Assembly (NCBI GenBank): GCA_050179755.1
Contig: JBFXEV010000001.1
Location: 1,033,994 to 1,097,993 of the forward strand
Direction: 5' to 3'
Source of the DNA: Candidatus Babeliales bacterium
GTDB taxonomy: Bacteria; Babelota; Babeliae; Babelales; JBFXEV01
DNA length: 64,000 nucleotides
Part shown: piece by piece, positions 788 to 60,903 of the stretch
Position numbering within the stretch: position 1 is the stretch's first letter
How the letters are laid out: each line of letters begins with the position of its first letter
The notes under the pieces: model-generated
Seen by the model: only the letters and a program-made list of their open reading frames with translations
What the model was told of the DNA's origin: nothing
Database searches by the model: none
Made by a program: the position numbers and the translations under genes

Positions 788-1396
788 ATGATATTAAGAA
801 GCTTAGATGGCAAAAAGCGCTGTTTTGGTGGCCAACCGGGTAAAGAATTTTATGCAGAATATCATGATAATGAATGGGGCATTCCTGTTCATAATGATCA
901 GCACTTATTTGAAATGCTCATTTTGGAGGGTGCCCAAGCGGGATTAAGTTGGGAAACTATTCTTAAAAGACGTACAGGTTATCGCAAAGCTTTCCATGAT
1001 TTTGATCCAGTTAAAGTGGCGTCAATGAGCGATGCTGAACTGGATGTATTATGTTCCAACCAGGAGATTATTCGTAATAAACGCAAAATATATACCGCAC
1101 GCCAGAACGCTCAAGCTTTTTTACGCATCAAGCAAGAATTTGGATCATTTGATCAGTATCTTTGGGATTTTGTTGGTAGCAAGCCTATGGTAAATCATTG
1201 GCAGCGGTTTGAAGATGTTCCGATTACCACGGTTGAAAGTGATGCATTATCAAAAGATCTCAAAAAGCGCGGGATGGCATTTGTTGGTTCTACAATTATG
1301 TATGCATACATACAGGCGGTAGGTCTAGTCAATGACCACTTGATCGAGTGCTGGAGGTATGGCCATGCTATCGCAGATAAGCAAAATAATTATTAG
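788..1396 (+). CDS. tag: DNA-3-methyladenine glycosylase I
   Basis: YHDNEWG, LFEMLILEGAQAGLSWETIL, IIRNKRKI, GLVNDH motifs. Confidence 0.95.
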   Translation: MILRSLDGKKRCFGGQPGKEFYAEYHDNEWGIPVHNDQHLFEMLILEGAQAGLSWETILKRRTGYRKAFHDFDPVKVASMSDAELDVLCSNQEIIRNKRKIYTARQNAQAFLRIKQEFGSFDQYLWDFVGSKPMVNHWQRFEDVPITTVESDALSKDLKKRGMAFVGSTIMYAYIQAVGLVNDHLIECWRYGHAIADKQNNY

Positions 1397-2412
1397 TTTT
1401 TTGAGGAACTAGCTGATTTAGGTATCCGAGGACTTTCTTTAATTGCTTTATTGATATTATAGATAATATCTCTTTGTAATTGAGCGTCAGGTGCATCAGG
1501 AAAATATTTTTTTGCTAATGCTAATTTATCGCGAACAATTTCTGGAATTAATTGAGCAGCAACAAGCCTTCCCATATCTCTACCAAGAATATTTTGTTTT
1601 TTAGTTAAGGCAATAATTGCCGGTATTACATGCTGAATCTCACTTGGAGAAACTCTCGTGAGTAATATTCTTAGCACTCCGCTAATATTCTGAATAATAA
1701 GTTGTCTTAATTCTTCCTCTTGACGAGGCAATAGCTCTTTTGCAGCATTTAATTTTTGTGTAACTAATTCGGGAACGAGCTGAGCTGCAACAACACTGCC
1801 AACAGTTTGCCCCAGGGCTGGATTAATTAGATGTTGTATTGAGGCAAGGTTTGGCAGTATAGATACTAATTCTAGGGGGGAAACTGATGTGCTTAAAGCA
1901 CGAATAGCTTGAACATTATTCGATTGCCGGGCACCTTGCATTGGAGTCAATTCAAATTTATCAGGTGTGTTAATATTGGCACCATACGCAATAAGAATTG
2001 GAATTGCGTTTGCACCAAGAAACCCAGAAGAAACTGCAGCATGCAATGGTGTTTGGCCATTGTTATCGAGTGCCTCAATATTTGCACCAGCTTGAATGAG
2101 CGTGCTCACGCCCACAGTATTTCCAGCTCTTGCAGCGTGATGAAGAGGTGTTTGGCCTTCTAGATCTTTGTAATGTAAGTCAGCGCCATAGTTAAGAAGC
2201 TGATTAATTTGTTGTATATGGGGGTCTATCTGCTCAATGTTTCTATAATAAGGCACAGATCCGGCTAGACTCAATAATATTTCATTCCTGATATCTTGGG
2301 ATCTCCCTTTACTATCTTGTGTTAACTGTACAGGTTCTTGCATAGCATGCACTAAGCAAGTCTGTGGCAGCATTAAGCCAATTAAGATAAATAACATACG
2401 TTTTCTATTCAT
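1393..2412 (-). CDS. Secreted ankyrin-repeat protein with two copies of a C-terminal helical domain
   Basis: Signal peptide; GQTPLHHAA and GQTPLHAAV repeats; duplicated SPxE...AAQLxPE...KL unit. Confidence 0.9.
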   Translation of the reverse strand: MNRKRMLFILIGLMLPQTCLVHAMQEPVQLTQDSKGRSQDIRNEILLSLAGSVPYYRNIEQIDPHIQQINQLLNYGADLHYKDLEGQTPLHHAARAGNTVGVSTLIQAGANIEALDNNGQTPLHAAVSSGFLGANAIPILIAYGANINTPDKFELTPMQGARQSNNVQAIRALSTSVSPLELVSILPNLASIQHLINPALGQTVGSVVAAQLVPELVTQKLNAAKELLPRQEEELRQLIIQNISGVLRILLTRVSPSEIQHVIPAIIALTKKQNILGRDMGRLVAAQLIPEIVRDKLALAKKYFPDAPDAQLQRDIIYNINKAIKESPRIPKSASSSKN

Positions 2413-2596
2413 GGTAATCCTTTTTTATCCGTAAATGAGCAGATAAGCCATATCTGGGGCATACTTTCTCACTTTCAAAGTACCAAATCTGAGGCATAAA
2501 AAGCAATGGTTTGGGGGCAAGAAGCCCCTTTGTTTCAGGTTTTTTACTCTTGAGCCTTGCGCAAATTTTGAGTTGCCTGGGCAAGGTTAGTAATGC

Positions 2597-3289
2597 TTAA
2601 TTATGGCTGTCTGCAGTGCATGAATTATTCTTTAATGCCGCTTTGTGACGCATTTCTAGAAACAATTGAGATGTTTTCAGCCTTCTAACTTTTTCCTTTT
2701 GGTCAGCATCGTGCCATGCATTTTGTAAGTATTTAATTGTTTCATAGCCACCAAAGATAATTCCTGGTATAACGCTCCCTATCACATTAATACTCAATGA
2801 AGCAGCATCAATACTTGTGGGCGTTTGCTGCAGTTGGCAATAGGAAAGTATGCTTAACGTGAGATTTACTACGGAGAAAGCGGTGACAGCTGCTGGAAAT
2901 ACTACTGTTCTATAGCGGGGGCAACACCGTGCACATTTCTTGGTGGCAATGCGATCTTGCTGCAAATTTACTTGCTCGTGAGTATAGTTGAGTGCATGGA
3001 GTAATTGGTGAGTGCACTGCGCAGTATCCGTCTGATTAATCTCGTTTGCATCTTGTTTGAATAGTTGACTGAGTTCCAGTATATTGCCATCTCCTATGTG
3101 TTTTTTTAATTCAACAGATAATGCGGTTGAGGCTTTCCCTTCTTCGATACTAACATTAACTTCAGGGGTCTGCTGGGATATAGTTGCAAGAGCAGTTCCT
3201 TGCACCTCCATCCCATTGAGTGTATGGCCTAATGCACAGGGTAAAACAACTATTGATTTGCATAACAAATATAAAAAGAGATTGTTCAT
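2597..3289 (-). CDS. Hypothetical exported protein with two hydrophobic helices
   Basis: 230-aa ORF, N-terminal signal-like segment, two internal TM-like segments. Confidence 0.7.
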   Translation of the reverse strand: MNNLFLYLLCKSIVVLPCALGHTLNGMEVQGTALATISQQTPEVNVSIEEGKASTALSVELKKHIGDGNILELSQLFKQDANEINQTDTAQCTHQLLHALNYTHEQVNLQQDRIATKKCARCCPRYRTVVFPAAVTAFSVVNLTLSILSYCQLQQTPTSIDAASLSINVIGSVIPGIIFGGYETIKYLQNAWHDADQKEKVRRLKTSQLFLEMRHKAALKNNSCTADSHN

Positions 3290-3477
3290 TTATTTTTCTT
3301 TTAAGAGTAAATCTTTTGGTACATAAAAATGCATAATTACAAAGCGTTGTTATTTTATCTGTGCATTCAAGAGTCGATTCATTTTGCCAAAAAAAATTGA
3401 CTTTATGTGTTTGAATAATGCTGCAATAAGCATTTGCTTAGATAAATAATGTGTGTGGTATGCAATGTAGATGTTAT

Positions 3478-59313: not shown

Positions 59314-59835
59314 ATTGATTGCCTTTCTTCCACTTTTGATAAATACGGCAATTTCCGCATTGTAGTGTGAATGTTGCGTAGTATAACCCCTCGCAATTCA
59401 CTTTCTGTCCACGGGCCACGAGAGAGAAATTTTTGTACTAACATCATATGATCCTCTACTATACACAGGATTAATTTTTCAGTGATTAGTTTGCCCACAT
59501 CTCTACCAAAACTTTTTCGGTTATTAAAGATAATGAAGCATGGAATAATATGTTGTACTTCTGCGGGGACACACCGTTGTTGCTAGTACTTTGCGTGTAT
59601 GCCAGTGTATTCCTATGTTTGTAGTAATTGCTAATAAAGAATCATTATTGGCAGAATTGCTTGAGAGCGCAGTGCTCAGAGCATCAGGACGTTCTTCAAT
59701 AAGTGCTTGTATTTCATTATAGGCGTTTGCTTTAACTGCTTGTGTGAGAGCACAGGTAGTGCTCTTCATAGCATTAATTATGCACACTTGAAGGCCAATT
59801 AAGGTGGCAAAAGCCAATAAAAGTAATTTTTCCAT
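59310..59835 (-). pseudogene. Frameshifted exported protein sharing the C-terminal domain of the ankyrin proteins
   Basis: ORFs 59524-59835 and 59310-59498 join by removing one C of the run at 59565-59568: LATTVCPAEVQHIIP...FGRDVGKLITEKLI. Confidence 0.7.
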
Positions 59836-59850
59836 GAGTTTTTCTCTGTA

Positions 59851-59907
59851 AATGAATAAATATTATCTTCTACTTAGAATAATAATTCATTTTGCGTTAA
59901 AAGTCAA
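59851..59907 (-). promoter_or_regulatory. Sigma70 promoter overlapped by candidate ARG boxes
   Basis: TTGACT(59907-59902)-17 bp-TATTAT(59884-59879); ARG-like ttagaataataattcatt (59874-59891, 1 mismatch) and aatgaataaatattatct (59851-59868, 2 mismatches). Confidence 0.6.
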
Positions 59908-59973
59908 GTAATAAGTGTTGATTGTGAGGAGAAGCCCAGTAATCAGGGCATTACTAGGCTCACAAAAGGTGCT

Positions 59974-60903
59974 CTAAGGCTTAGATTGCATTTTTGGTGA
60001 TGTGGCGATCATTTTATGTATCGTTTGTAAAATAGTAATTTCTAATTCTTTGGCGGCAACTTGCGGGAGCAATTTTTTGCCTAATGTTATCTTACTTTTC
60101 ATTATTGCAGGAATTAATTGTGTGGCAATCAGTAAGGCAACATCTTTACCAAAGATAGTTTTCTTGCCTGGATCATTACAGGGGTTAGTTAAACTAATGA
60201 GTGCCGGAATAATATGCTTAATTTCTTGTGGAGCTAGTGTTGTTGCTAATGCTTTTCTAGTACGTTGGCTTCGCTTTGAGGAAATTTCCAGTAAAGTAGT
60301 GCCCGTGGCATCGGCAGTGTTTATATCAGCGCCAGCTTCAATGAGTATTGGAATCGCTTGCCATACGTCTTTTTTTACTGCTAAAAATAAGGGTGTTTCA
60401 CCGCATCCGTTTGGTGTGTTTACGCGCGCTCCAGAGTTTATGAGTGTTTTTATGCCAGAAAGAGCACATACTCGCACGGCAGCGTGTAATGGCGTATTAA
60501 GCCTTTGATCTTGCGCATTGGGATCAGCACCCCACGCAATTAATATTTGTGGCGTGATTGGACTGGTAGTTGTTTTGCTAGGTGCACTATAAAATGCATA
60601 GTGTAAAGGTGTTGCTCCGCGTAAATCACGAATAGTTGGCTTTGCCCCTGCATCTAAAAGACATTGTGTCTTTACACTATCATTATTGCGGGCTGATTCA
60701 AATAATGAGTTATCCATCAGCCGTCGCTCCTCTGGAGCTTCCGCTACGCCTAAGCTAGAGCATGTCCAGATGGCGTAATTGGTATCACGACGTCCTTCGA
60801 CAAGCTCAGGATGAGCGGATTTTGGCGAAGTCTGATTCATTGCCTTAACTTGCCCTGACAAAATGTAGGCAAGAATGGCTGCTAATTGAAAAAATGGTTT
60901 CAT
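59974..60903 (-). CDS. Secreted ankyrin-repeat protein with in-frame palindromic-element insertion
   Basis: GATPLHYA, NTPLHAAV, GETPLFLAV; repeats at 60720-60819. Confidence 0.9.
   Translation of the reverse strand: MKPFFQLAAILAYILSGQVKAMNQTSPKSAHPELVEGRRDTNYAIWTCSSLGVAEAPEERRLMDNSLFESARNNDSVKTQCLLDAGAKPTIRDLRGATPLHYAFYSAPSKTTTSPITPQILIAWGADPNAQDQRLNTPLHAAVRVCALSGIKTLINSGARVNTPNGCGETPLFLAVKKDVWQAIPILIEAGADINTADATGTTLLEISSKRSQRTRKALATTLAPQEIKHIIPALISLTNPCNDPGKKTIFGKDVALLIATQLIPAIMKSKITLGKKLLPQVAAKELEITILQTIHKMIATSPKMQSKP
60720..60819. repeat. Family A and family B palindromic elements inside a CDS
   Basis: gccgtcgctcctctggagct (cf. 87-117) and tccttcgacaagctcaggatgagcgga (cf. 30999-31025). 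Confidence 0.8.

Follow-up and report, generated by a model that had tools for sequence, protein, structure and literature searches.

Predicted signal peptides of lineage-specific secreted proteins in a Candidatus Babeliales genome often end before a methionine followed by an acidic residue

We analysed a stretch of 64,000 nucleotides from a Candidatus Babeliales bacterium (the window; G000:C1:1033994-1097993, where G000 is the source genome, a single contig of 1,525,295 bp with 39% G+C) and found that the predicted signal peptides of many secreted proteins, in the window and across the genome, end directly before a methionine, which is most often followed by Asp or Glu. We call this pattern the Met rule and the proteins that follow it carriers. 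The Met rule is real, strong and under selection; it is a rule at P1' (the first residue after the cut, or +1) of signal peptidase I that is specific to this lineage and apparently unpublished. Because Met is enriched and conserved at +1, the following residue is biased and the rule divides classes of protein, we regard Met-Asp/Glu as most probably a selected code at the mature N-terminus that marks the host-directed secretome.

The gene content of G000 fits the known picture of protist-parasitic Dependentiae, for which export signals have been described on up to 44% of genes (PMC6561590). The genome holds 79 ankyrin-repeat genes, and Pfam matches in the window include a TLC ATP/ADP translocase (PF03219) and, confirming one point of an earlier reading of the window (the original prediction), the signal peptidase gene lepB (PF10502). 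Comparisons drew on relatives among 40 other genomes of the phylum, all from the same order; they include G001, of the same genus, G016, G011 and G019, from other Babeliales families, and G030, a deep branch.

Results

Methionine is enriched at the first mature residue

Genes were called with a simple caller of our own (1509 in G000). Signal peptides were scored on n-region charge, a 7-residue uncharged hydrophobic core, small residues at positions -3 and -1 and distance from the core, with +1 ignored, and all cleavage sites reported here are heuristic predictions from sequence, not SignalP calls. Of 703 candidate signal peptides, 433 formed a strict set, scoring at least 6 and lacking any later hydrophobic segment; a relaxed set admitted a lower score or one later hydrophobic segment.

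Met stood at +1 in 103 of the 433 strict predictions, compared with a background of 1.8% Met in the mature parts (binomial p 3e-81), and the other frequent residues there were Leu (34) and Gln (30). The main control was provided by the neighbouring positions, where Met was counted 16, 7, 18, 11, 12, 0, 8 and 0 times at -8 to -1 and 6, 25, 20, 15, 15, 6, 11 and 7 times at +2 to +9. The share was kept at stricter scores (67/299, 29/133 and 6/35); it was 20/85 among proteins with one later hydrophobic segment and 2/42 among polytopic proteins. When every (-3,-1)-compatible site behind a hydrophobic core was counted (2446 sites in 800 proteins), Met was the commonest +1 residue (276 sites, 11.3%) at 6.1 times background, every other residue lying between 0.4 and 2.0 times, and a compatible site preceded Met in 262 of the 800 proteins. 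The enrichment that the original prediction had proposed is thus borne out by both counts. The same pipeline applied to 200 kb of Escherichia coli K-12, a small control, placed Met at +1 in 1 of 21 proteins (Fisher p 0.058 against G000); the lone match was LamB, for which the heuristic cuts two residues upstream of what we take to be the experimental site.

The finder makes errors. Its false positives in the window include an ABC ATPase, a NUDIX protein and the LepB anchor, and it misplaces sites, since by eye a further ~23 ankyrin genes have a small residue and Met after the core. The true share of Met at +1 is therefore uncertain, though not small.

The residue after the methionine is predominantly acidic

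Among the 103 strict carriers, +2 was Asp in 27%, Glu in 24%, Gln in 9%, Lys in 8%, Leu in 7%, Asn in 6% and Ser or Thr in 0%. Residue 2 at the real N-termini of non-exported genes was Asp in 2%, Glu in 6%, Lys in 13%, Ser in 10% and Ser or Thr in 14%, such that Asp/Glu reached 51% in carriers versus 8% at true N-termini; after internal Met residues, Asp followed in 4% and Glu in 5%. Small residues, which Met-aminopeptidase accepts, made up 8% at +2 versus 38% after internal Met, and bulky hydrophobic residues 11% versus 26%. The original prediction had pointed to the similarity of these N-termini to substrates of the eukaryotic acetyltransferase NatB, and the NatB-type set Asp/Glu/Asn/Gln was indeed found at +2 in 66% of carriers. 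Pro was raised at +3 (15%), and the first 25 mature residues were richer in disorder-promoting residues (fraction 0.708 in carriers versus 0.639, p 6.5e-11).

Upstream of the cut, -1 was Ala in 78 carriers, Ser in 11, Gly in 10, Cys in 3 and Thr in 1, and -3 was mainly Ala (28), Leu (25) or Val (23). Small residues at these positions are required by the heuristic and hence partly circular; the dominance of Ala is not. A charged n-region and an uncharged hydrophobic core, present in all 103, are likewise requirements of the heuristic. In the DNA around the junction we found neither a promoter-like nor a ribosome-binding-site-like logo, only a mild excess of GCC in the -1 Ala codon.

Two other classes of export signal were considered and set aside. 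A lipoprotein signal (signal peptidase II) does not fit, as +1 is Met rather than Cys and Cys precedes Met in only 3 of 103, although LAGC/MEPEE at G000:509462-510076 (the slash marks the predicted cut) could be a genuine lipoprotein whose Met is at +2. A type IV prepilin leader, a short charged segment cut after Gly ahead of the hydrophobic stretch, was rejected because in carriers that stretch precedes Met and the mature protein opens with polar or acidic residues. No obvious twin-arginine motif was seen by eye in the listed n-regions, for which no motif scan was made.

Twelve junctions in the window

The original prediction quoted twelve junctions of this kind in proteins described as unrelated. 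All 12 were located at the genes named; their mature parts form 8 families by BLAST, so that the lack of relatedness was overstated. Three are M48-like paralogues and three have a common ankyrin-type region. Every one of the 12 proteins has a positively charged n-region and then a hydrophobic core near the N-terminus. The heuristic, blind to +1, agreed with the quoted site for 6 proteins of the strict set and for 3 more of the relaxed set, and picked another nearby site in the remaining 3 (2597-3289, 13954-14478 and 59524-59835). The proteins and the presumed processing enzyme are as follows.

1393..2412, minus strand: ankyrin-repeat protein, 339 aa; 23-aa signal peptide ending LVHA, then Met-Gln; Met codon 2341-2343; Ank_2 1.2e-16; public gene call is the long form
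2597..3289, minus strand: orphan with two later hydrophobic segments; TLNG/MEV; Met codon 3209-3211; a single sub-threshold Pfam match
10150..11016, plus strand: lepB, type I signal peptidase, presumed processing enzyme; Peptidase_S26 1e-33
13954..14478, plus strand: orphan; ASNC/MDA; Met codon 14029-14031; no Pfam family; heuristic favours AAS/NCM
14992..15582, plus strand: orphan; PLFG/MEL; Met codon 15052-15054; score 5.8, relaxed set; no Pfam family
33157..33654, plus strand: orphan with one later hydrophobic segment; DSMC/MRK; Met codon 33232-33234; no Pfam family
37409..37786, plus strand: orphan, 125 aa; HVCG/MDR; Met codon 37472-37474; no Pfam family; public call is the long form
38801..39151, minus strand: orphan, 116 aa; TLYA/MDE; Met codon 39065-39067; no Pfam family; public call is the long form
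51663..52676, minus strand: M48-like (weak match); QSKA/MDW; Met codon 52602-52604; Peptidase_M48 E 4e-4; public call is the long form
53059..54108, minus strand: M48-like paralogue; QTYA/MKG; Met codon 54031-54033; no Pfam family at E<=0.001; BLAST 1e-42 to 4e-64 against its two M48-like neighbours
54101..55159, minus strand: M48-like (weak match); EAHA/MKG; Met codon 55088-55090; Peptidase_M48 E 1.6e-4
59524..59835, minus strand: small protein, 103 aa; IINA/MKS; Met codon 59767-59769; no Pfam family; heuristic favours a later TCA/LTQ
59974..60903, minus strand: ankyrin-repeat protein, 309 aa; QVKA/MNQ; Met codon 60838-60840; Ank_2 9e-24; public call is the long form

The G001 orthologue of the ankyrin protein at 1393..2412 carries ILA/MED. 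In the orphan at 2597..3289 the site favoured by the heuristic, ALG/HTL, lies five residues before the quoted one. The orphan at 13954-14478 has a paralogue at 15664-16113, with which it has a near-identical C-terminal domain of ~120 residues in common; the paralogue is a GTG-started open reading frame (ORF) with no signal peptide, while 13954-14478 has the signal peptide and the Met junction.

A second LepB is encoded at G000:C1:1506720-1507571 and is 62% identical to the LepB of the window (PF10502 E-values 1e-33 and 3e-33). Many relatives have at least two copies, in some cases interrupted by an insertion that divides the match, and others have a single copy; we saw no link between copy number and strength of the Met rule.

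Translation starts upstream and the methionine is conserved

A methionine after a putative signal peptide could itself be the start codon, either giving rise to a second, signal-less cytoplasmic isoform or being the sole start of a gene with a mis-annotated 5' extension. A Shine-Dalgarno core (at least 4 bases) preceded the start in 38.8% of 1135 genes. For the 103 carriers it preceded 44.7% of first starts but only 3.9% of internal ATG codons, compared with 4.0% of 7487 random internal Met codons. The first starts of carriers also showed a purine-rich, A-rich logo that was missing at the internal ATG. Alternative start codons were no more frequent at +1 than codon usage predicts (TTG in 3 of 34 Leu codons, GTG in 4 of 24 Val codons), which suggests that +1 is not an initiation site, where they should accompany ATG. 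Public gene calls for the five window genes tested gave the long form in 5 and the short form in 0. Because only ~39% of G000 genes have a clear core, initiation at the internal codon without one is conceivable. However, the residue after the Met is unlike that of real N-termini, the upstream segments are built of n-, h- and c-regions and remain in frame in orthologues, and an internal start gives no role to the strict Ala-x-Ala adjacency. The original prediction had named an internal Met that is the real start as an observation that would speak against it; these signals indicate instead that the upstream ATG is the true start, and we give initiation at the internal ATG barely any weight.

We compared G000 with 800 kb of G001, which yielded 419 reciprocal best hits, 31 of them with a carrier (identity 28-72%). 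Met was aligned with Met in 24 of the 31 pairs, and by eye 2-3 more were displaced by an alignment gap, while positions -6 to -2 and +2 to +6 were identical in 16-42% of pairs (mean 29%; binomial p 3.5e-8 for Met). As the Met is kept in 24 of 31 pairs versus ~29% identity at flanking residues, this alignment argues that the +1 Met is under purifying selection.

The same comparison bears on the possibility that the Met is a relic, the old start codon of an intact gene to which a signal peptide was added by 5' extension or by fusion of a cassette, as the original prediction had considered. Carriers are young, lineage-specific genes, a few tandem paralogues have common signal peptides and diverged mature parts, and many cytoplasmic-type enzymes of the lineage have clearly gained signal peptides. 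Among the histidine phosphatases of the window, one intact gene has clearly acquired a signal peptide:

33725..34399, plus strand: exported histidine phosphatase (His_Phos_1) that does not follow the rule (LYA/QQ)

In this protein, however, the ancestral start Met, as judged from the signal-less paralogue 35014-35580 and from 17302-17991, lies 16 residues after the predicted cut and not at +1. A relic also fits poorly with the conservation just described, with the excess of Asp/Glu and the lack of Ser/Thr at +2 relative to true N-termini, and with the sharpness of the peak, in which Met falls from 103 at +1 to 6 at +2. We further examined 123 carriers, admitting proteins with one or no later hydrophobic segment. 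These split into 76 BLAST families, 63 of them singletons, which argues against a common cassette, and the largest was the ankyrin family, in which 45 of 88 members carry the Met rule. Similar signal peptides on non-homologous mature parts occurred in 8 of 7503 carrier pairs, mostly tandem paralogues. Modular fusion of signal cassettes is therefore not supported, since unrelated carriers do not have signal peptides in common, +2 is unlike a former N-terminus and the Met is conserved. Taken together, these patterns largely refute a relic origin, which we consider very improbable.

Carriers are repeat proteins and orphans rather than enzymes

The 12 window carriers comprise 2 ankyrin proteins, 2 weak M48 matches, 1 sub-threshold match and 7 proteins without a Pfam family, and 17 of the 21 other signal-peptide proteins in the window belong to families. 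These non-carriers include kinases, phosphatases, a deaminase, SurE, a PLP (pyridoxal phosphate) enzyme, a GNAT protein, solute-binding proteins, a PT-HINT toxin and one ankyrin protein. We repeated the class test on a further 400 kb of G000 using a permissive carrier list. The 87 carriers found there were 25 ankyrin, 3 WD40 and 2 DUF proteins, 52 proteins without a family and 5 evident chance matches (DnaN, DnaX, Nth-like, FtsB-like and HtpX-like M48), and the 50 non-carriers were 23 enzyme or envelope proteins (for example PBP, SurA-like, TolB-like, S41 protease, FtsH and LepB), 3 ankyrin proteins and 24 without a family. The enzyme/envelope class was unequally distributed between carriers and non-carriers (Fisher p 3.8e-8), as were the repeat proteins (p 2.7e-4), and both secretins and both LepBs of G000 were non-carriers. 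The division that the original prediction had seen, with the rule in ankyrin, orphan and M48-like proteins and not in exported enzymes, thus holds in both the window and the 400 kb, and extends to envelope proteins. Carriers were also less often conserved across families, with homologues in samples of three other families for 15 of 103 carriers versus 112 of 330 non-carriers (p 1e-4).

Two loci elsewhere in G000 are of note for the repeat classes. Three adjoining WD40 beta-propeller proteins at G000:C1:467253-473281 all have a signal peptide and a Met junction, making WD40 a second eukaryote-like repeat class under the Met rule besides the ankyrins. At G000:C1:1396453-1408234, none of the 10 ankyrin-repeat genes in a tandem run has a signal peptide, unlike most ankyrin genes elsewhere in the genome, which have one together with the Met rule.

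The rule is found in relatives from several families

Met stood at +1 in 29 of 87 and 17 of 114 predictions in two samples of G001 (pooled 46/201), in 25 of 99 in G016, 15 of 104 in G011 and 14 of 80 in G019. The share was 14-33% across 400-kb samples from four families, the upper value being one of the two G001 samples. Among families other than that of G000, samples from four gave 14-25% and two more were weak or unclear. Pooling G016, G011, G019 and G030 gave 60 of 327, with Asp/Glu/Asn/Gln at +2 in 67%. G004 (0/10) and G018 (0/5) were too small to read, and the lepB neighbourhoods of 65 other Babeliales records gave 13 of 195, these being housekeeping neighbourhoods and not representative. 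From these samples the Met rule is widespread in the order but not uniform. Carriers rarely have cross-family homologues, yet other families show the rule on lineage-specific proteins of their own, which suggests a conserved constraint acting on a repertoire that turns over.

A host-like N-terminus as a possible purpose

We propose that carriers are ordinary Sec substrates, with a Shine-Dalgarno-led start, a charged n-region, a hydrophobic core and an Ala-x-Ala-type site, which LepB would cut exactly before Met to give a mature protein beginning with Met and then Asp or Glu (or Gln, Asn or Lys). The rule would be confined to a fast-evolving, host-directed secretome of ankyrin, WD40 and orphan proteins, some 100-260 genes in G000. 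Bacteria multiplying inside protists would release these Sec-exported proteins into the host cytoplasm, where the N-terminal machinery of the host would judge the neo-N-terminus left by signal peptidase. Where the next residue is neither small nor bulky and hydrophobic, Met should be the sole N-terminus to pass as host-made, being untrimmed by Met-aminopeptidase and invisible to the Arg/N-degron pathway. The depletion of small and bulky hydrophobic residues at +2 is as expected if the Met must stay without creating a Met-hydrophobic degron, an expectation that follows the Met-aminopeptidase and Arg/N-degron rules described in PMC11441550. That a host-like, degron-free N-terminus is the purpose of the rule, with a presumed benefit for stability, is the reading we favour, a tentative proposal to which we would give somewhat less than an even chance.

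Several observations weigh against it. Non-degron residues also include Ala, Ser, Thr, Gly and Val, which are those normally found at +1 of signal peptidase sites, and this leaves the choice of Met unexplained. Among signal-peptide proteins with a residue other than Met at +1, stabilising residues were no more frequent in lineage-specific proteins (38%) than in conserved ones (39%), and the destabilising residue Gln was the commonest +1 residue in the lineage-specific group (25/174, versus 2/102 in the conserved group). NatB acetylation in the host is co-translational, and so would not act on imported proteins. Carriers showed neither a lower Cys content nor an enrichment of CaaX motifs. The rule is also weak in some families: G030 has Met at +1 in 6 of 44, three of them Met-Ser, and 100 kb of G055 has effectively ~1 of 37 (~3%), with Ser (11) and Ala (5) dominating +1. 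The raw count for G055 was 6 of 37, five of which belong to one paralogue family whose relatives indicate a cut 2-3 residues later. Finally, strict conservation of a single residue fits a signal read by a receptor at least as well as it fits a host-like N-terminus.

Two side observations concern these +1 residues. Gln at +1 is exemplified in the window by VTA/QT, LYA/QQ, LFA/QP and IFA/QT. In the G055 paralogues L214-L216, the signal peptides end in MS-MYA-AQE; the Met is probably in the c-region with the cut after MYA, an arrangement that mimics the Met rule in a naive count.

A possible receptor-read signal or role inside the bacterium

A receptor-read signal would make the rule a sorting code for the outer membrane, in which a secretion step in the periplasm (type II secretion, vesicle loading or a novel translocon) reads the free Met-Asp/Glu and the disordered stretch behind it and sends the proteins out, leaving enzymes and envelope proteins behind. 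Some 30-55% of G000 proteins have an N-terminal export-like signal, and something must therefore discriminate resident from released proteins; the rule divides exactly these two types of protein class. One invariant residue with a charge preference resembles a receptor-read signal, and the disorder-rich first 25 residues of carriers fit as well. G000 has two secretin genes, and type II secretion genes with two gspD copies have been described in all TM6 genomes compared (PMC4776705). The sorting code does not, however, predict the +2 spectrum, with no small and few hydrophobic residues, which a host-like N-terminus does predict. We know of no linear N-terminal signal for type II secretion, and no candidate receptor was found. 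Some families (G030, G055) seem to manage without the rule, and for the comparable rule of the Bacteroidetes, discussed below, the authors argue against a sorting role (PMC5837995). On balance such a periplasmic sorting step is less likely than not, though only a little behind the host-like N-terminus, both readings having been offered in the original prediction. We hold in the same doubt the corresponding claim that Met-Asp/Glu is a linear address label that tells host-directed effectors from resident periplasmic proteins after Sec export, which would be read by a novel export step of a didermic bacterium and would define the whole effector repertoire.

The rule might alternatively serve processing or stability inside the bacterium, by tuning LepB kinetics, protecting from a periplasmic aminopeptidase or providing a substrate for N-terminal modification. 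The Bacteroidetes show that a single P1' residue can become fixed in a lineage for the sake of stability (PMC5837995; PMC10653852), and G000 has two LepB paralogues. Against this, the rule spares conserved envelope proteins that the same LepB must process, and G011 follows the rule (15/104) with a single LepB match. Checks for an exported modifier (GNAT, M24 and PF05096) found none. A role of this kind inside the bacterium is accordingly improbable.

Individual candidates for such a role were dismissed as follows. A signal-peptide GNAT protein (36793-37404) adjoins a carrier in the window and could have been an exported N-acetyltransferase; it was found in only 4 of the 31 relatives searched. 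Both M24 genes, the candidates for an exported Met-aminopeptidase, have no signal peptide. No PF05096 match to a glutaminyl cyclase was found in G000, the animal-type (M28-like) family not having been searched. The second LepB is not required as a dedicated peptidase, since G011 shows the rule with one LepB match.

Other loci in the window

A polymorphic-toxin-style locus occupies 19117-24818. It begins with a signal-peptide PT-HINT protein (19117-20946), which is followed by three paralogous genes of ~290 aa (20949-21812, 23004-23873 and 23943-24818), and its C-terminal end recurs in the short ORFs 22110-22565 and 22726-23016, an arrangement that resembles spare toxin tips with immunity genes. 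Elsewhere in the genome, G000:1208363-1209637 encodes another PT-HINT/Ntox37 protein.

The last ~60 residues of a 95-aa ORF (40153-40440) nearly match the C-terminus of a 374-aa alanine-racemase-like gene (45888-47012). This partial duplicate flanks a 1307-aa orphan gene (40539-44462) and its partner (44464-45264).

Signal peptides were also predicted on ATP-dependent kinase-type enzymes at 8214-9595 (AAA_28/dNK-like), 30102-30827 (CPT-like) and 5942-6913 (APH), which implies that an ATP-importing parasite carries out ATP-using reactions beyond its cytoplasmic membrane.

Discussion

The closest parallel to the Met rule is the Q-rule of the Bacteroidetes, which is also a lineage-wide P1' bias of Sec/signal peptidase I substrates that exposes one N-terminal residue. 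There Gln at +1 is cyclised to pyroglutamate; the rule was found from sequence statistics and is thought to serve stability (PMC5837995; PMC10653852). The two differ in several respects. The residue is Gln in one and Met in the other (in G000, Gln at +1 in 30 of 433 versus Met in 103 of 433). The Q-rule covers most signal peptidase I substrates, including periplasmic ones, while the Met rule applies to a sub-class that leaves out envelope proteins and exported enzymes. The Q-rule has a modifying enzyme, glutaminyl cyclase, whereas none was found for the Met rule in the PF05096 search, and the Met rule adds a preference for Asp/Glu/Asn/Gln at +2.

A single-protein precedent is the anthrax edema factor, which matures to an N-terminal Met-Asn; the residue at its N-terminus strongly affects how active it is in host cells, by way of the N-end rule (PMC3755998). 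Like the proposed carriers, it is Sec-exported, acts in the host cytosol and has its Met exposed by signal peptide cleavage. It is, however, one protein of a Gram-positive toxin system with a dedicated translocon and not a proteome-wide rule, and conservation and the +2 pattern are not analysed in the available text of that paper (PMC3755998).

The two-residue pattern calls to mind other systems as well, each of which differs from the Met rule in mechanism. NatB substrates begin with Met-Asp, Met-Glu, Met-Asn or Met-Gln, and 66% of the predicted mature N-termini of carriers are exactly these dipeptides. NatB, however, acts on nascent chains at the host ribosome; because carriers are made in the bacterium, acetylation by NatB would not be expected without a further step. 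In the Lol-avoidance rule of lipoproteins, which acts at +2, and in the lipoprotein export signal of the Bacteroidota, the first mature residues decide the destination, and in Plasmodium PEXEL and oomycete RxLR proteins cleavage exposes a defined N-terminus on proteins exported to the host. The lipoprotein rules depend on signal peptidase II, and PEXEL and RxLR proteins are eukaryotic endoplasmic reticulum substrates with different motifs, whereas here no receptor or protease beyond LepB is indicated.

We found no description of the Met rule in the literature covered, from which supplements and subscription-only papers were absent. The word methionine does not occur in the available text of PMC6561590, PMC4776705 or PMC5837995, and the last of these, the Q-rule paper, likewise contains neither TM6 nor Dependentiae in that text.

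Among P1' rules of signal peptidase I that span a lineage, only the Q-rule of the Bacteroidetes would precede the Met rule. The Met rule has consequences for annotation and for signal-peptide predictors that were trained on other phyla, and it offers a testable handle on what may be either a new sorting signal for two-step secretion or a strategy against N-degrons. Dependentiae are widespread parasites of protists, and a Met-acidic N-terminus could be used to list candidate effectors in hundreds of metagenome-assembled genomes. If Met-Asp/Glu does prove to be an address label, the whole effector repertoire of a major uncultured phylum, 100-260 genes per genome, would be readable from sequence.

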